Shown here piece after piece: positions 15-26,315 of a stretch of DNA of 34,642 nt. Source of the stretch: Acidimicrobiia bacterium (GTDB lineage: Bacteria; Actinomycetota; Acidimicrobiia; IMCC26256; JAENVU01); NCBI GenBank assembly GCA_025357995.1, contig JANYLF010000192.1, positions 1 through 34,642 of the forward strand, read 5' to 3'. Made by a program: the position numbers and the translations under genes. Below the pieces are notes generated by a model that was not told the origin of the DNA, made no database searches, and saw only the letters and a program-made list of their open reading frames with translations. Within the stretch, counting starts at the first letter, position 1; every line of letters begins with the position of its first letter.

Positions 15-728
15 TCAGAACAACGGGGACCAGGCGACGGTGCGCAACATGCGACTCTCCCAGTCGTCGCGTACGCGCAGTGCATCGTGCATCCAGGTTC
101 CGGGCGCTCGGTGCTCCTCCGGTACCTCGGACGTGAGCAGCCCGAGCAGGCCCGACGGGCGGGTGACCTTCTGCCACAGAATCACTTCACGATGCTTCGC
201 GGCCGCACCCCAGGCCGGGGTGAAGACCGCCTGAAGTTCGAGGAGGGAGCGGCCACCATGGCGGCCTTCCGCGAGACTCGGCGCGTAGTTGTCGCGCGCG
301 GCCTCGAGGTACTCCTCGAGCATGCCCGCGTGCGGCCATGCGGTGTCTTCCATGAACAGCGTGAGATCGTGTTCGCCACCGTCCGTGGGAACGTGCGCGA
401 AGTCGACTTCTTGAAGCGGCGACCACTCGGCCGGCACGACTGCCTTCGCAGTCACGTCCCAGCGCAGCTGGTCGAATTTGCGGGCAGTAGCGCGGAGATC
501 TCCGCGTTGGAGTCTCCAGACCAGGTCTTCCCACGCGGCGCCGTTGCGTACCGCGGTGAGCGTGACGAAGTTGTAGGCCCGACCGGTTCCGTGGGTAAGG
601 CGCATGAAGTAGAGCAGCCGCGCGTCGTCCGTCTGGGCCAGCTTGGGCATCAACTCGTCGCGGAAGCTGGCTTCGAACTCGTCTTCGTGCGCACCCATCA
701 CGCGGTGAACTTCGTGAATGAAGAGCAT
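15..728 (-). CDS. NIPSNAP-like / tandem alpha-beta-barrel domain protein, function unknown
   Basis: 237-aa ORF with an ATG start and G/C-rich third positions. It has two internally similar halves (MLFIHEVHRV...WEDL and LTLFMEDTAW...WESR). Its start lies 9 nt downstream of the stop of the selenoprotein gene on the same strand, so co-transcription is likely. The family call is from memory, not searched. Confidence 0.6.
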   Translation of the reverse strand: MLFIHEVHRVMGAHEDEFEASFRDELMPKLAQTDDARLLYFMRLTHGTGRAYNFVTLTAVRNGAAWEDLVWRLQRGDLRATARKFDQLRWDVTAKAVVPAEWSPLQEVDFAHVPTDGGEHDLTLFMEDTAWPHAGMLEEYLEAARDNYAPSLAEGRHGGRSLLELQAVFTPAWGAAAKHREVILWQKVTRPSGLLGLLTSEVPEEHRAPGTWMHDALRVRDDWESRMLRTVAWSPLF

Positions 729-737
729 GGGCGGACG

Positions 738-1265
738 CTATCGCTCGGCGACGGGCTCCGTGATCGCGGCGAGGATTGCTTCGAGCGCGACGTCGGCGAG
801 CGCGCGCAATTCCTCATCCGTCCGGTCCTGAATGGGGTGGGGGACAAAGACCACGGCTGGGTCCGCACCCAGCGCGGCGGACTGCGCCGCGGCCGCGTCG
901 ATGAACTCGGTGGACGCGAGGAACACACCGGGCGTTCCGGCGGCTTCGAGGTTCACGATGTCGTGCACACTGCACGACGTGCACGAGCCTCAATCGGCGA
1001 GGGCCTCGATCACCACATCGCACTTGGTGGAGATCTCGTGGCGCAGGTCGATCGGGGCCGGCTTGGTGAAGGTGGGCTTCGCGAACCGCAAGACGGTGTG
1101 ACCGCGCGTTTCGAGTTGTTCCGCGAGACGATCGAGGAAGACGTCTCCGCGTGCCTTCGTGATATCGAGCAAGCCGATCGTCGCGCCGTCGAGCGTGGCC
1201 GGTCGTTTCGCGCGCTCGCGGGTGCCGGGCGCGCGTTCGCTGGTCGGGTCGAGCACTGTGGTCAT
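738..1265 (-). CDS. UGSC-family selenoprotein (175 aa) with in-frame TGA = selenocysteine at 990..992
   Basis: ORFs 990..1517 and 738..968 are in the same frame and are separated only by the TGA at 990..992. Read-through gives ...KCDVVIEALAD-U-GSCTSCSVHDIVNLEAAG.... The ATG at 1263..1265 overlaps the upstream gene's stop (ATGA). The downstream fragment has no ATG or SD of its own. A perfect hairpin lies 11 nt after the UGA. Confidence 0.75.
960..978 (-). promoter_or_regulatory. candidate bacterial SECIS hairpin
   Basis: The mRNA sense reads UGA-GGCUCGUGCAC-GUCGUGCA-GUG-UGCACGAC. This is an 8-bp perfect stem (or 7 bp with an AGUGU loop) starting exactly 11 nt after the UGA, with G/U in the apical loop. 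Flanking GGCU...AGCC could extend a lower stem. Confidence 0.5.
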
Positions 1266-2695
1266 GAACGCAGCTCTCTGGTCACCGGTTCGGACCCCAT
1301 CTTCCCACTTGCCCACCCGCCGATGATGCCGGAGAACAAACCGGCGCCTCCGCCGGCATGGGCGATGAGCATTCCGCCATCGCGGAACTTGGGCAAGGTG
1401 AGTTCGGCCAGCGATTCCGGGATCCCCTCCTCGATGCCACTCGCGCCTCGCACCATCTCCCGGCCGTCGATCTGGAGCAGTGCGCCGATCTCCTCGCGAA
1501 AGCGCGCCTTCGACCATCCCGCCTCTTCGTAGACACGGAGGTGATCGGGGGTGATGACCAACATCGCGTCGAACGCGAGTGGCAGCTTCGGATGTGCGGT
1601 CGTGCGCAGGCAGGCGGCGAAGCTCCGGGTGAGTGATTCGGGCGTGCGCGAGATCTGGTCGACGATGCCACGTACGCCCTCACCCGCGAAGAGGGTCACC
1701 GTGTTCTGGCTCGCCTGGTACCCGCGCTCCACGTGCATGGGTTCCCAGAACGCATCTTCGTGCTCGGCGAAGCAGCACGTGTACTTGCCGGGCTGGCCGA
1801 GGGTGGCGCGATCGACTTCGCCGGGTCGACCGCCGCCCACGTTGCGAATCACGAGTTGAAGCGCGCGGCCGATCGTTGCGTTGGCGCGGTTGCCAGGGCC
1901 GAGCGCGTTGATGCCGCTGTTCATGCCGATGGCGCGCGTGATCGGCCCGTTGACGACGATGACGGGCCCACTGAACCAAGTGGTAGCGAGGAGGCCGTGC
2001 ATGTTGAAATCGTCGGTGCACGCGGCCTCCACCGCGGCGAGGACCACCGGGAGATACTCCGGAAGACACCCCGCCATGACCGCGTTGATCGCCACTTTCT
2101 CGACAGTGCACTCGACGAGGTCGGGCGGAATCACCGCCACGATGTCCTGCGCACCGCGCGTCGTTCCGGCCAGCATCCGCACGACTCGCGCGGGTGTAGG
2201 TGGGACGACCGGCAGGCCGTCTGACCAGCCGCGGGCGAACATGGCCTCGGCGTCGTCCTCTTCGTCGCCCAGATCGACGCGACGGGCGCGGAGATCACGC
2301 TCGCCTTCGCGAGTGGCGCGCGCAGCCGCGATCGCCGGGTCCTGAGTGCGAGAACCACATCCCGGCCGGTAGGGCGGCAGGTTCGCGCCGAGCGCGTCGA
2401 CGCCGGTGAACTCGATCCATTCGGGCTGACTCCATCCGACGATGCGCGCCACTTCCTTGCCGTCTTCGACGCGAAGGAGTGTGGGGACGGTGTCGAGTTC
2501 GAGCGCGAAACTCACCTCCAGCTCGCGGTCGTCCAGCGCACCGCCGATGGACTCGGGGAAGCTCGGATCGTCCTGCGAGTAGACGGTGACCGCACCGGGA
2601 TACGACGCGCGCAGCTCGGCGAGGACGGGCGCCAGGAGGGTGCACGTGGGACAATCGCGCTTGACGATCGCCACAATGCCGTCCGTCAGCTGCAT
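1262..2695 (-). CDS. thioredoxin-fold (CPTC) domain fused to a large uncharacterised C-terminal domain
   Basis: 477-aa ORF. The N-terminal ~100 aa look Trx-like, with a redox motif (KRDCPTCTLLAP) and a VPTLL strand. An acidic linker follows, then a ~350-aa domain (GWSDGLPVVPPT...NAVMAGC...GPGNRANATIGRA) that I cannot assign. Its stop overlaps the selenoprotein ATG. Confidence 0.8.
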   Translation of the reverse strand: MQLTDGIVAIVKRDCPTCTLLAPVLAELRASYPGAVTVYSQDDPSFPESIGGALDDRELEVSFALELDTVPTLLRVEDGKEVARIVGWSQPEWIEFTGVDALGANLPPYRPGCGSRTQDPAIAAARATREGERDLRARRVDLGDEEDDAEAMFARGWSDGLPVVPPTPARVVRMLAGTTRGAQDIVAVIPPDLVECTVEKVAINAVMAGCLPEYLPVVLAAVEAACTDDFNMHGLLATTWFSGPVIVVNGPITRAIGMNSGINALGPGNRANATIGRALQLVIRNVGGGRPGEVDRATLGQPGKYTCCFAEHEDAFWEPMHVERGYQASQNTVTLFAGEGVRGIVDQISRTPESLTRSFAACLRTTAHPKLPLAFDAMLVITPDHLRVYEEAGWSKARFREEIGALLQIDGREMVRGASGIEEGIPESLAELTLPKFRDGGMLIAHAGGGAGLFSGIIGGWASGKMGSEPVTRELRS

Positions 2696-2743: not shown

Positions 2744-4545
<1,802 letters not shown>

Positions 4546-4559
<14 letters not shown>

Positions 4560-5283
4560 CGTTGCGTCCGTTCGATTGGCCGACAAACGCATCGATGTCA
4601 TAGCCGCGGTCTTCCCAGTAGCCGGGGACGACCTTGTCGACGACTTCGATTCCGTCGAGCCACTTGATCGACTTGTAGCCGTACATCGGTGCGACGTACA
4701 GCCGGACTGGTCCGCCGTGATCACTCGAGATCGGCTTGCCGTCGAGTTGGTACGCAACGATGACGTCGTCGAGTCGGGCTTGGCTCATCGTGAGGCTCTC
4801 GGTATACGTGCCGTCGAAGCTGGTGAGCCGGAGCGCCTTGCCGGCGCTCTGGACGCCGGCACGGTCGAGGAGATCGGCGAGTCGCACGCCGCGCCATTTC
4901 ACGCCGGTCACGCGCCACCCGGTCACGCACTGAAAGTCGCGGTCGAGCAACTTTGGGGGCAGGGCCGTGAGTTGGTCGTAGGTGAGTGTGAACGGCCGGT
5001 CGACGAGACCACTGACGCGCAGTGAATAGTCGGCGGTGGCGCGGCTCGGGTAGTCGCCGGTCACGGTGTAGTAGCGCCAGCCGCCACCACCTGGGAGCAG
5101 CGCGGTCAGACCAGTGGGGTCGTCCTTGGCGAGTTGCTGATACCAGTTCGATACGGAGGACCCGGTGAGCACGCCGACGGCGCCGAGTCCGAGCAGTCCG
5201 AGAAACAGGCGACGGCCGACCGGAGTCCCGCGTGCATCGTCAGGGGTTTCACTCCCCATCTCGATTGCGCTCGGCTCATCCAT
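4546..5283 (-). CDS. molybdopterin-dependent oxidoreductase (sulfite-oxidase / MsrP-YedY-like) with Tat signal
   Basis: There is a twin-arginine signal (GRRLFLGLLGLGAVG). FQCVTGW, GVRLADLL, GGPVRLYVP-like and YGYKSIKWL motifs are typical of the oxidoreductase molybdopterin-binding domain. Confidence 0.85.
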
Positions 5284-11249: not shown

Positions 11250-12998
11250 ATGACCGCGCTGCAGGCAACGGCTGACCCGTCGAATCTCCAGACCGTCTCC
11301 GCTGATCCGCACCGACTTCGGCGGCGAGTGCTGCTCACGCTCACGTTCATCGGCCTCATCCTGTTGATGTTGCGACCGTCGTGGCACTCACTCACGACGA
11401 AGGTTCCCGATCTCGGTGACCCGGTGCTCTACGGCTGGGGTTGGAACTGGACTCGTCACGCGTTGTTCACGAATCCGGGCCGGCTCTTCGACGGCAACAT
11501 CTTCTGGCGTCACCCGCTCACGGTTGCCTACACGGACAACATGTTGGTGCTCTTGGTGCCGTTCTCACTGTTGCGCGCCGTCGGCGCGGGTTGGGCGTTG
11601 CAACTCAACGCGCTCGGGCTGGGCATGATCTTCTTTTCACTGGCGGCCACCTTCTCGTTGGCGCGCCGGACCACCGGCAGGACGGATGTTTCGATCTTCG
11701 CGGCGATCGCGTACACGTTCGGCGCGTTCACGTTCGCACATCTCGGCCATCTTCAGCTGCTGCTCCTCGGACAGTTCCCGCTCGGCTTCCTCTTGATGTT
11801 CCGCTGGTTCGAACGGCGTCGGGCGCGGGATGCAGTGTGGTTCGGCCTGCTGAATGCGTCGTTCTTTCTCGGCGCGCTCTACTACGCGGCGATCTGGATG
11901 GTGTGTGTCGCGGTGGTGCTGATCGGCTATCTCGTGATGACTCGGTTCCGGCCGGGTCCGCGATTCGCGCGCGGCCTTGCCATCGCGGCGGTGTGCAGCG
12001 CGACCGCTCTCCCGTTCGTGATCCCGTATGTGCATCTCGGACAGGAGCGACCACTCGTTCCGGAGTGGGGCCTCCAACCTCGCGATTTGGTGAACGTCGC
12101 GCCGGGCAGCTTCCTATATCCCGGTATCGACTCGTGGGCCAACGCGAGCGTGGACCGAATCGAACACTCCTTCTTCCCGGGCTTCAGCACGGAGTTGCTC
12201 GCTGCCATCGGACTCGGCGCGCTGGTGTGGTCGAGTCGAACGGCTCGGGCGCGGGCCCGCATCGACCTGTCCCGCGATCGCCGACGCGAACTGTGGTTGA
12301 TGATCCTCGCCGGCAGCGCGGCGATGGTGCTGAGTCTCGGACCCGAAGTCCGCGGCCACACCCTCCCGTTCACGTGGTTCCACGACCACGTTCCGGGATT
12401 CTCCGGCATTCGGGTGGCTGCTCGCCTTGCGGTTCCCGGGTTACTCGCCGCGGCGCTCCTCGCGGCGGTGGGGATCTCCGCAATCGTCCGCCGGGCTCGC
12501 GCTCGCAGGTCGCGCGTCATCGTGCTCGGGCTCTGCGGATTTCTGCTGCTCGAGCTGGCGGCACCCCTGACTCAGGTATCACTTCCCGTCGGCGCCAGCA
12601 CGCTTGCGGTCTACCGGGCGCTCGACCACAAGCCGACGGGAGCGGTCGTGGAACTGCCGATGGGGAATCCTGTGTTGGGCGCCGAATGGGCTCGGCTCGA
12701 GGCGCCGCGGATGCTGTACTCCACGCTCGACCTTCACCCGCGCATCAACGGATACTCGGGAAGCTTCCCGCCCGACTACATCGAGCGGCGGACCACCTTC
12801 AATCGATTTCCCGCGCCGGCGTCGCTGCGTGCCGCTCGGGGCCTGGGGGTGCGGTATGTGGTCCTGCACGTCGGCGGGTACGGGGGGTACCCGCAATACA
12901 CCGACCCGCAGATTCGGACGATCGTTGCCGGTCTCCCGCCCGGGGCCACCACGCATCGCTACGGCGACGCGTGGCTCGTCGATTTAGGGCGAACGTAA
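11250..12998 (+). CDS. large polytopic membrane protein, possibly a GT-C-type glycosyltransferase
   Basis: 582 aa with about 10 or more TM helices in the N-terminal 430 aa and a C-terminal soluble domain (YRALDHKPTGAVVELPMG...GVRYVVLHV). The architecture resembles lipid-linked-sugar transferases, but no diagnostic motif was recognised. Confidence 0.7.
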   Translation: MTALQATADPSNLQTVSADPHRLRRRVLLTLTFIGLILLMLRPSWHSLTTKVPDLGDPVLYGWGWNWTRHALFTNPGRLFDGNIFWRHPLTVAYTDNMLVLLVPFSLLRAVGAGWALQLNALGLGMIFFSLAATFSLARRTTGRTDVSIFAAIAYTFGAFTFAHLGHLQLLLLGQFPLGFLLMFRWFERRRARDAVWFGLLNASFFLGALYYAAIWMVCVAVVLIGYLVMTRFRPGPRFARGLAIAAVCSATALPFVIPYVHLGQERPLVPEWGLQPRDLVNVAPGSFLYPGIDSWANASVDRIEHSFFPGFSTELLAAIGLGALVWSSRTARARARIDLSRDRRRELWLMILAGSAAMVLSLGPEVRGHTLPFTWFHDHVPGFSGIRVAARLAVPGLLAAALLAAVGISAIVRRARARRSRVIVLGLCGFLLLELAAPLTQVSLPVGASTLAVYRALDHKPTGAVVELPMGNPVLGAEWARLEAPRMLYSTLDLHPRINGYSGSFPPDYIERRTTFNRFPAPASLRAARGLGVRYVVLHVGGYGGYPQYTDPQIRTIVAGLPPGATTHRYGDAWLVDLGRT

Positions 12999-24615: not shown

Positions 24616-25461
24616 ATGGCGCTCACCCCTTCCACCATCCCCGCGTTACTCGCGCGCCACGGCCTGCGCCCGAGTCGCGCACTGGGCCAGAACTTCCTCG
24701 CCGACGCCAACACCGCGCGTCGAATCGCTCGGCTTGCGGGGATCCACGACGGTGATCGCGTGTTGGAGATCGGCCCCGGCATCGGCTCGTTGACGGTTGC
24801 ACTGCTCGAAGCCGGTGCGCGCGTCACCGCGTTGGAACTCGACCGGCACGTGATTCCCGCGCTGGAGGAGACGGTCGGAGCCGACGCGATCCGAATCCTG
24901 GTGGGCGATGCGCTGCGCATCGACCTCGACGAGCTGCTCGGCACCGACACCATCGACCATGACGCGCGCCCGTGGTCGATGGTTTCGAACCTTCCGTACA
25001 ACGTGGCGACACCGATCGTGATGCGTTTGCTCGAAACGGCACCGACGGTGACGTCGATGCTGGTGATGGTGCAGCGTGAGGTGGGCGAACGCATCGCGTC
25101 GGGCCCGGGCACAAAGGCGTACGGCGCGGTGTCGGTGAAGGTCGCGTACTACGCGCGTGCCGAGGTCGTCGGCCTCGTACCGCCGACGGTCTTCATCCCC
25201 GCACCCAAGGTGGATTCCGCGTTGGTGCGGATCGTGCGCCATGCCCAGCCACCGGTTTCCGTGCCGTCGCCCGACCGCTTGTTCGCGCTCGTGCGCGCCG
25301 GTTTCGCGCAACGGCGCAAGATGTTGCGGGGCGCGTTGCGCGCGGAGCTCGGCACCAACGTGGAGTCGGTGTTGGCATCGGCAGGGATCGACGGTCGCGC
25401 CCGCGCCGAAACATTGACCCTCGATCAGTGGGCCGCGTTGGCCTGCGTGGTGGGCGCGTGA
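24616..25461 (+). CDS. rsmA: 16S rRNA (adenine1518/1519-N6)-dimethyltransferase
   Basis: It has LGQNFL, VLEIGPGIGSLT, SNLPYNV and FAQRRK motifs. Confidence 0.95.
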   Translation: MALTPSTIPALLARHGLRPSRALGQNFLADANTARRIARLAGIHDGDRVLEIGPGIGSLTVALLEAGARVTALELDRHVIPALEETVGADAIRILVGDALRIDLDELLGTDTIDHDARPWSMVSNLPYNVATPIVMRLLETAPTVTSMLVMVQREVGERIASGPGTKAYGAVSVKVAYYARAEVVGLVPPTVFIPAPKVDSALVRIVRHAQPPVSVPSPDRLFALVRAGFAQRRKMLRGALRAELGTNVESVLASAGIDGRARAETLTLDQWAALACVVGA

Positions 25462-26315
25462 GTTCCGCGCGCACTCGCGCGTTGGCGCCCGCGAAGCTCA
25501 CGCTGAGTCTGCGCGTGATGGGAACACGGCCCGATGGGTTCCACGACCTGGAGGCGCTGACGGTGATGATCTCGTCGCCGTGCGACACGGTGCGTCTGGA
25601 TGCTGCTCCGGCCGGTGTGGTCGAACTCACCGTGGTCGGAGGGGGGCTCGACGTTCCTGACGACGACACGAATCTGGTGGTGCGAGCCGCGCGCGCGGTA
25701 CTGCCCGAGCATGTCGGTGCCGCGATCGAACTGACAAAAGTGGTGCCGACCGGTGCGGGGCTCGGTGGTGGCTCGGCCGATGCGGCCGCGGTGCTCCGCA
25801 TGCTGCGCGCGCGCTACGGCCTCGACGCCGGCGTTGTCGGGGCCGCGGCCATCGAGCTGGGGTCCGACGTTCCCGTGTGCCTCATGGGCGAGCCGGTCAT
25901 GATGCGCGGCCGCGGCGAGATTCTGGAACCCGTCGAGTTAGCGGGCGATCTCCACGTGGTCGTGGCGTCTCCCGGGTTCGGACTGTCGACGCCGGCAGTG
26001 TTCCGGGCCTGGGATGAGATGGGCGGTCCGCGCGGCAGTCGGACGGTTGCGCCGCCCCGAGCCGTCGCTCACCTCGCGCGCGAGCTGGGCAACGACCTCG
26101 AGGATGCGGCGGAGCGGGTCGATCCCCAGGTCCGAGCGTTCCGCGAGGCCATCGAGTCTGTTGCGGGGTTGCCTGCCTGCCTGGCCGGGAGTGGCTCAGC
26201 CTTTTGGTTTTCCGTCGAGGATGCGATCGCGGCCGCCGACGTTGCGGCGCGACTCAGTGCGGAGCTCGAGATCGAGACGTTTGCCGGGTACGCGCTCCGG
26301 AAACCGGTGGCGTGA
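25458..26315 (+). CDS. ispE: 4-(cytidine 5'-diphospho)-2-C-methyl-D-erythritol kinase
   Basis: It has APAKLTLSLRV, the GHMP kinase motif PTGAGLGGGSADAAA, and GSDVP. I prefer the GTG at 25458, which overlaps the rsmA stop (GTGA); the ORF-track start is 25428. Confidence 0.9.
   Translation: MSSARTRALAPAKLTLSLRVMGTRPDGFHDLEALTVMISSPCDTVRLDAAPAGVVELTVVGGGLDVPDDDTNLVVRAARAVLPEHVGAAIELTKVVPTGAGLGGGSADAAAVLRMLRARYGLDAGVVGAAAIELGSDVPVCLMGEPVMMRGRGEILEPVELAGDLHVVVASPGFGLSTPAVFRAWDEMGGPRGSRTVAPPRAVAHLARELGNDLEDAAERVDPQVRAFREAIESVAGLPACLAGSGSAFWFSVEDAIAAADVAARLSAELEIETFAGYALRKPVA

Follow-up and report, generated by a model that had tools for sequence, protein, structure and literature searches.

A putative thioredoxin-coupled selenoprotein pair, UGSC and its partner domain X, in an Acidimicrobiia bacterium

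Three closely spaced genes on a contig of an Acidimicrobiia bacterium (JANYLF010000192.1) raise the question of whether a thioredoxin (Trx) fusion protein, a selenoprotein and a third, cysteine-free protein form one redox system, and, if not, which of them belong together. The window, i.e., the whole analysed stretch of 34,642 nt, is an Acidimicrobiia chromosome segment with 67% GC. The first gene (g1) encodes a Trx-like domain fused to a large domain termed X here, the second (g2) encodes a selenoprotein of the UGSC family, and the third (g3) completes the row. The results of the comparative analysis suggest that X and UGSC constitute a two-protein, selenocysteine (Sec)-dependent and thioredoxin-coupled oxidoreductase, in which the substrate would be bound by X and reduced by Sec92/Cys95 of UGSC; judged from sequence comparisons, this reading is given a probability of about 0.6. 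The genes, as delimited by their open reading frames (ORFs) and, for g2, also by its translation, are as follows:

1262..2695, (-) strand: g1, Trx–X fusion protein, 477 aa
738..1265, (-) strand: g2, UGSC-family selenoprotein, 175 codons
15..728, (-) strand: g3, cysteine-free protein, 237 aa

The ORF coordinates agree with the layout given in an earlier note on this DNA: all three genes are found on the same strand, the ATGA at 1262..1265 is common to the stop codon of g1 and the start codon of g2, and g2 and g3 are spaced by 9 nt (729..737).

Partnership of X with UGSC and with thioredoxin components

Relatives of g1 were scanned for in one genome per GTDB species, which gave at least 594 of them, and the best 80 (57–72% identity) were examined. 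These originate from Acidimicrobiia, other Actinomycetota, Chloroflexota, Myxococcota, Nitrospirota, Spirochaetota and Acidobacteriota, as well as from Alpha-, Beta- and Gammaproteobacteria. A UGSC gene was found immediately downstream of Trx–X in 78 of the 80 species-level loci, the remaining two being contig ends (78/78 assessable). Among more distant relatives, in which X carries no fused Trx domain (36–50% identity), UGSC adjoins X in 60 of 80 metagenome loci, in either gene order, and the loci without an adjacent UGSC are mostly truncated contigs or belong to a subfamily located near mreB. Members of the latter (L113:3656-4879 and L121:4887-6017, beside mreB/mreC) are ~47% identical to the X of the window and may depend on some other partner, or on none at all. 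In haloarchaeal replicons, X adjoins a form of UGSC that has Cys in place of Sec, and in two proteins (P0369 and P0382) a Cys-form UGSC and X make up a single chain. The co-occurrence that the earlier note proposed to check for the trio was observed for the g1–g2 pair (78/80 loci), while g3 accompanies it in 4/80. Based on these patterns, X and UGSC are best regarded as a conserved two-gene unit, with g3 outside it.

The features of the g1 protein to which the text refers are listed below:

2381..2695, (-) strand: Trx-fold domain, residues ~1–105 (weak profile matches and Foldseek)
2642..2653, (-) strand: CPTC active site, residues 15–18 (g1 translation; C15 and C18 invariant)
1265..2338, (-) strand: domain X, residues ~120–477, ~350 aa (remainder of g1, a conserved family)
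2066..2068, (-) strand: codon of C210 in A208-G209-C210 of X (conserved in all X subfamilies)
1772..1774, (-) strand: codon of C308 in the CFAE motif of X (conserved across the X family)

The N-terminal domain of g1 falls below the cut-offs of the Trx profiles, with 19.1 bits to PF13098 (Thioredoxin_2; cut-off 27) and 23.7 bits to TIGR01068 (cut-off 96.8), and shows weak matches to thioredoxin sequences in the PDB. A TVPT cis-Pro-like motif is present in this domain, and the g1 model matches thioredoxin structures with a Foldseek probability of 1.0 and a target template modelling (TM) score of ~0.6. Thus, the CPTC-bearing, thioredoxin-like domain described in the earlier note was recovered by both residue invariance (C15/C18) and predicted structure, and residues 1–105 are best described as a divergent Trx-fold domain rather than a canonical TrxA.

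No Pfam or NCBIfam match was obtained for X of the window protein, nor for X itself in 59 diverse relatives at E<=5, and searches against PDB sequences, both by protein and by family profile, gave no match either. Over 8000 90% clusters, with proteins of ~477 aa, are homologous to full-length g1 and are named 'thioredoxin family protein' at best, and 5400 50%-identity representatives match X at E<=1e-3. X is therefore a very large protein family without a Pfam or NCBIfam model. The AlphaFold2 (AF2) model of g1 built from homologues of at least 69% identity was poor (predicted local distance difference test score, pLDDT, of 66.9) and was replaced by one from a diverse alignment, which yielded a single-body model with a pLDDT of 95.6 and a predicted TM score (pTM) of 0.90; a pTM of this size, taken over the full chain, points to docking of the Trx domain onto X. 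A Foldseek search of full-length g1 against PDB and BFVD returned only thioredoxins at E<=1e-3 among the top 50 matches listed. The large domain, which the earlier note could not place, is thus assigned to no characterised family by family profiles, PDB sequences or AF2 with Foldseek, and no relationship between X and UGSC was found by hhalign.

The NAVMAGC and YTCCF motifs noticed previously are present in g1. Conservation in all X subfamilies extends to D159/P162 (GWxDGLP), A208-G209-C210 and R270/N272/R277 (GNRANATIGRA), and further across subfamilies to C308/E311 (CFAE), W317 and G449, the latter within AGG close to the C-terminal end. C210 is invariant and C308 nearly so, and the set of conserved residues looks like a putative active site with two cysteines. 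X also often occurs in paralogous pairs (L085, L098 and L153; L175:4983-7645; P0296 and P0299, ~713–741 aa), arranged as UGSC(..TSW)-X-X'-UGSC(..SSG) tandems, as X-UGSC-X' in Halorientalis, or as single-chain X–X fusions, and these pairs suggest that X may act as a homo- or heterodimer.

Where X is fused at its N terminus, the partner is in every case a redox module of the thiol or selenol type, namely Trx, the peroxiredoxin-like AhpC/Redoxin, UGSC, and FeThRed_B (the catalytic chain of ferredoxin:thioredoxin reductase, FTR-B). The last of these fusions was observed in one X homologue (alignment A2), which matches the NCBIfam model 'FtrB family double-selenoprotein' and suggests that ferredoxin-driven variants of the X–UGSC system may exist. 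Genes of the Trx system are also found in X–UGSC clusters of named organisms: the order is trxB-trxA-X-UGSC in Arthrobacter sp. ERGS1:01 and LysR-X-UGSC-trxB in Roseovarius sp. THAF8, and trxB lies within the cluster of Variovorax sp. SRS16. The role proposed in the earlier note, that of a Trx-coupled reductase with an unknown substrate, is in keeping with both the fusions and these gene arrangements.

As to the substrate, X–UGSC clusters in annotated bacterial replicons and in haloarchaea contain genes for CoA transferases, CoA ester lyase, short-chain dehydrogenases/reductases and TRAP/TTT carboxylate transporters, and for those subfamilies the catabolic contexts hint at a small organic acid or a CoA-ester. 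In three haloarchaeal loci (L169:7029-8745, L175:859-2750 and L176:757-2654), X/UGSC recur with DUF6282, a CoA transferase and a CoA ester lyase, and also with an LLM-class flavin oxidoreductase or an NAD(P)-binding protein; these neighbours could represent a catabolic pathway that indicates the substrate.

The same neighbourhoods bear on another division of labour, in which UGSC would itself be the enzyme (a Sec peroxidase or thiol-disulfide oxidoreductase acting in oxidative stress) and X only a reductase or scaffold that passes on electrons from Trx. This is considered fairly unlikely. Although reviews place UGSC among Trx-fold-like antioxidant selenoproteins, some X members are fused to peroxiredoxin-like AhpC/Redoxin, and the pair in the window lies beside MsrP/MsrQ-like genes, the contexts in cultured organisms are catabolic (CoA transferase, CoA ester lyase, TRAP/TTT) and not stress regulons. 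Furthermore, X is larger and more conserved across phyla (57–72% identity), the polar positions that are invariant in it (D, R, N and E) resemble a substrate site, and it has no match to a nucleotide- or flavin-binding family, as might be looked for in a reductase. The assignment of substrate binding to X, and of the reductive step to UGSC, is preferred here.

Selenocysteine in the UGSC protein

The features of g2 that concern the decoding of Sec, including the selenocysteine insertion sequence (SECIS), are the following:

990..992, (-) strand: Sec codon TGA, residue 92, the only in-frame TGA in g2 (translation ALAD-U-GSCTSCSVHD)
948..991, (-) strand: SECIS element (minimum free energy hairpin and covariation)
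960..978, (-) strand: apical stem of the SECIS, GUCGUGCA/UGCACGAC, capped by a GUG loop (minimum free energy hairpin, pairing and covariation)

The g2 protein scores 154.4 bits against NCBIfam NF041046 ('UGSC family (seleno)protein'; curated cut-off, 125) and 151.8 bits against Pfam PF24696 (curated cut-off, 25), and is by these profiles a member of the known UGSC selenoprotein family. The translation contains the in-frame TGA and the U-G-S-C-T-S-C sequence reported in the earlier note, with Cys95 and Cys98 completing the UGSCTSC motif. In the UGSC genes beside Trx–X, the codon at the Sec position is a stop in 77/77 cases (TGA in 75 and TAG in 2) and never a Cys codon; in the more distant relatives beside unfused X, it is TGA in 58/58. 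With both sets pooled, TGA or TAG occupies this position in 135/135 bacterial relatives, and Cys replaces Sec in haloarchaea (DCGSCTSW) and in the UGSC–X fusion proteins. The persistence of Sec in all of the bacterial relatives suggests a chemistry that would be poorly performed by Cys, and such constancy bears on the question of why aerobes maintain selenium.

That the TGA is an ordinary stop, with g2 being a pseudogene or a pair of short ORFs unrelated to each other, can practically be dismissed. Automatic gene callers do split g2 into ~91 and ~72 aa; however, protein similarity continues past the stop in the 135 relatives, compensatory changes occur in the downstream hairpin, Cys takes the place of the stop in archaea and fusion proteins, and TAG is found in two lineages, as in the UAG-Sec recoding of Geodermatophilaceae. 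The comparative data (similarity through the stop, hairpin and Cys replacement) refute this alternative, and they argue strongly that the UGA of g2 is decoded as Sec with the aid of the SECIS hairpin.

The apical stem of the hairpin starts 11 nt past the UGA and shows 97.9% pairing across 76 distinct sequences of close relatives. In the wider UGSC alignment, compensatory double changes were observed in 5 of the 8 pairs; the compensatory cells number 39, compared with 9.2 +/- 2.5 in shuffles, and the covariation score is 0.281, compared with 0.095 in shuffles, a value that was reached by 0/500 shuffles, with slid controls lower as well. The lower stem, which extends to the UGA, is less regular, shifts in register from one lineage to another and covaries weakly; thus, the SECIS claim is limited to the apical stem.

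The stem is formed by the codons for T-S-C-S-V-H-D. Compensatory changes alter the UGSC protein in other subfamilies (Cys98 to Trp or Gly, and His to Leu), so part of the apparent conservation of the motif after Sec is RNA-driven. D91, U92, S94, C95 and H143-P144 are invariant family-wide. UGSCTSC as a whole is present in all 77 Trx–X-linked UGSC proteins, and other UGSC subfamilies have W or G in place of the final Cys; therefore, Cys98 is specific to the subfamily of the window. Of the selenenylsulfide/disulfide relay that the earlier note read from the U-G-S-C-T-S-C sequence, the part that stands is the invariant Sec92 and Cys95; the third Cys is replaced by W or G elsewhere and is encoded within the SECIS stem.

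A TAG codon at the Sec position, with the SECIS hairpin intact, was observed in L006:7668-7670 (Candidatus Blastococcus massiliensis) and in L067:7665-7667. According to the literature, UAG-Sec recoding with a tRNA-Sec(CUA) occurs in Geodermatophilaceae, and proteins with the UGSC motif are explicitly included (PMC5330540). The TAG codons of both loci match this recoding, and L067, which is labelled only as 'Actinomycetota', may be a further case of it.

The selB gene was found within 6 kb of the X–UGSC pair in 8 of the 80 related loci (a few kb away in L016, L019, L031, L032 (7986-9932), L041, L046, L077 and L079), and also in L168:10437-12212; in some of the selB-bearing loci it is located directly downstream of UGSC. 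In Paracoccus ferrooxidans, which has the order UGSC(TGA)-X, selB follows ~3.3 kb downstream of X. UGSC may be a principal reason for retaining the Sec machinery in the genomes with an adjacent selB.

The third gene and the surrounding window

In the earlier note, g3 was described as a NIPSNAP-like protein of tandem small alpha-beta-barrels and as the third part of a single redox module. Its two halves, of ~115 aa each, are indeed homologous (hhalign of the N- versus the C-terminal half: probability, 88.5%; E-value, 2.7e-6; 90 columns), which bears out the tandem, with the ferredoxin-like alpha-beta-barrel fold (beta-alpha-beta-beta-alpha-beta) being putative. The likeness to NIPSNAP was not confirmed, as the window protein has no match to PF07978 and only 1 of 26 homologues matches, with an E-value of 0.16. 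Moreover, g3 has no sequence match in Pfam, NCBIfam or PDB.

The view of g1, g2 and g3 as one three-component selenium-dependent redox system draws on the position of the third gene, which follows g2 by 9 nt on the same strand (it may be co-transcribed with g2 here), and on the contiguity of all three genes in the window, L001, L009, L056, L162/163 and L164/165, with serC, adh_short or NmrA upstream. This view is nevertheless quite unlikely. Among the 80 g1–g2 loci, g3 is present in four (adjacent in three and at 4 kb in one), all of them from the closest Acidimicrobiia relatives, and is absent from 76, including every non-Acidimicrobiia locus; it also follows g1–g2 in L162–L165. Conversely, homologues of g3 (64–72% identity) follow serC without g1–g2 in L081, L166 and the P0208 contig, either directly or with an ABC transporter pair inserted between, and retain the same downstream neighbours (PIG-L, MarR and MFS). 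The protein is also devoid of cysteine. Taken together, the distribution of g3 identifies it, as far as gene order can tell, as an adjacent gene passed down in a single clade of Acidimicrobiia and not as a core component, and the three-gene module was not supported by this comparison; the X–UGSC pair is retained as the unit.

The gene order in the window is MsrP-like, cytochrome b561, serC, g1, g2 and g3; therefore, g1–g2 sits between serC and the backbone gene g3. The MsrP/MsrQ-like pair (Oxidored_molyb and cytochrome b561; 3906..5283, (-) strand) is located upstream of serC, and the order of molybdoenzyme, cytochrome b and serC is also kept in L001, L002, L009, L056 and L081. The housekeeping genes of the window include metG, tatD, an rpf-like gene, ksgA, ispE, glmU and prs. 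An ORF of 582 aa with a high GC content at third codon positions (11250..12998, (+) strand) has no Pfam match at E<=1e-5. Promoter and terminator scans performed no better than the chance level.

The 34.6-kb window was also scanned for Sec machinery and contains neither selB nor tRNA-Sec. A 95-nt 'tRNA-Arg(CCG)' predicted by ARAGORN (25573..25667, (+) strand) was considered as an unusual tRNA-Sec and rejected: the call falls within an IspE-like (GHMP kinase) ORF (25428..26315), and no Rfam tRNA model matches it even at E<=1. Most probably, the call is spurious and does not represent an unusual long-arm tRNA.

Proposed mechanism and comparison with known systems

In the proposed mechanism, X and UGSC would form a complex in which X binds a small substrate. 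The reductive step would be carried out by Sec92/Cys95 of UGSC, which would end as a selenenylsulfide and could then exchange with the X cysteines C210/C308; the fused CPTC Trx domain would re-reduce the oxidised centre and would, in turn, be recharged by thioredoxin reductase and NADPH. Such chemistry would be akin, by analogy, to that of selenoprotein B of glycine and D-proline reductase, with a different, new partner subunit. The comparative data show the decoding of Sec, the partnership, the fusions and the trx operons described above; complex formation, the course of the electrons, direct catalysis by Sec and the kind of substrate are what we infer.

The analogy with selenoprotein B has a basis in sequence profiles. 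Among 19 UGSC members, 12 match the GrdB model TIGR01917 (best E-value, 7e-5) and 10 match GrdF, while other members match GrdH, PrdB or the umbrella model TIGR01918; matches of the window UGSC fall at model positions ~333–429, i.e., in the Sec-bearing C-terminal part. According to the literature, UxxCxxC is the signature of GrdB/F/H (PMC6778437, PMC13188914). The UGSCTSC of the window protein conforms to it. UGSC thus bears a remote resemblance to the Sec-bearing region of GrdB/PrdB, a likeness that would reflect a shared working principle rather than family membership.

A stricter version of the analogy would make X the functional counterpart of GrdE/PrdA, self-cleaving at Gly209-Cys210 to yield a pyruvoyl group, and the pair an aerobic counterpart of the glycine/proline reductase B components. 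GrdE and PrdA derive their pyruvoyl group from a Cys, the A-G-C210 sequence is invariant in every X subfamily, and UGSC resembles the Sec region of GrdB/PrdB, including UxxCxxC. Even so, this version is very unlikely: 59 X members show no similarity to the Gly_reductase, GrdE or PrdA models at E<=5, the AGC lies between two helices in the AF2 model rather than in a strand-turn, as is usual for sites of self-processing, and homologues of GrdA and GrdC are not conserved near X–UGSC loci.

Several observations weigh against the two-protein oxidoreductase itself. The sequence of g2 is far below the cut-offs of both reductase models, with 16.8 bits against TIGR01917 (cut-off 602.2) and 13 bits against TIGR01918 (cut-off 65.45), and, with X being unrelated to GrdE/PrdA by sequence in the 59 members at E<=5, the GrdB/PrdB analogy may be superficial. 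Adjacent trxB/trxA was found in 1 of the 160 metagenomic and GTDB loci; trxB is, however, expected to be seldom adjacent where Trx is fused and a housekeeping TrxB can serve. All-against-all clustering of ORFs revealed no third gene conserved around the 160 Trx–X and unfused-X loci, the clusters consisting of shadow ORFs and of sporadic acyl-CoA dehydrogenase, MutY-like, selB and ABC ATPase genes. One unfused-X subfamily, near mreB, is devoid of an adjacent UGSC. The thioredoxin matches that fill the Foldseek listing could hide a weak structural relative of X, and g3, being contiguous with g1–g2 in three upstream contexts that differ, may still have an accessory role specific to its clade.

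Of the candidate 'undescribed system' of the earlier note, the selenoprotein half is not new. The UGSC family has been present in selenoprotein catalogues since 2007–2008, with its function unknown (PMC1976440, PMC2398784), and was among the most abundant selenoproteins of the GOS (Global Ocean Sampling) metagenomes, especially of the non-marine samples; it is also a recurrent entry among the most abundant prokaryotic selenoproteins of ocean and freshwater metagenomes. A 'UGSC/Unknown_1' fusion was reported by Zhang and Gladyshev (PMC1976440, PMC2398784), in which Unknown_1 may be X. In the literature searched, the obligate X partner, the missing family model of X, the coupling to Trx and the GrdB/PrdB-like character of the Sec module were not described, and this part of the claim stands. 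UGSC thus goes almost everywhere with one specific partner, which is fused to or lies beside components of the Trx system. A broader proposal, put forward tentatively and at somewhat less than even odds, is that X–UGSC represents an undescribed, very widespread group of Trx-driven, Sec-dependent reductases of aerobes (with Cys forms in haloarchaea), with X as their catalytic subunit, that reductively cleave, in GrdB/PrdB-like fashion, a substrate such as a small organic acid, an amine or a CoA-ester. The clusters in Roseovarius, Variovorax, Arthrobacter and haloarchaea suggest carboxylates, amines and CoA-esters as candidate substrates. If true, the broader proposal would assign a function to an orphan selenoprotein that is among the most abundant of its kind in aquatic metagenomes.

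Compared with the known members of the UGSC family (NF041046/PF24696), g2 shows no difference: it shares the D-U-G-S-C motif, the TGA-encoded Sec and the SECIS, and its host is of the kind in which the family abounds, namely Actinomycetota and Proteobacteria of aquatic and soil habitats. Trx-fused or Trx-dependent thiol reductases, such as Trx-fused methionine sulfoxide reductases and those of the AhpC/AhpF type, likewise have a CxxC-bearing Trx attached to a domain that it presumably recycles; X differs from them in that it is related neither to Msr, Prx or ArsC nor to any modelled family, and in its need for a separate selenoprotein. Unlike the glycine/sarcosine/betaine reductases (GrdB/F/H with GrdE/G/I) and D-proline reductase (PrdB with PrdA), X–UGSC occurs mostly in aerobes and not in amino-acid-fermenting anaerobes, has Trx fused to the partner subunit, and is accompanied by neither GrdA nor GrdC. 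In both, Sec is carried in UxxC(xxC) on a small or C-terminal module, this module is partnered by a second, larger subunit, and, as would be the case for the Trx-linked X–UGSC pair, glycine reductase receives its electrons from the thioredoxin system.

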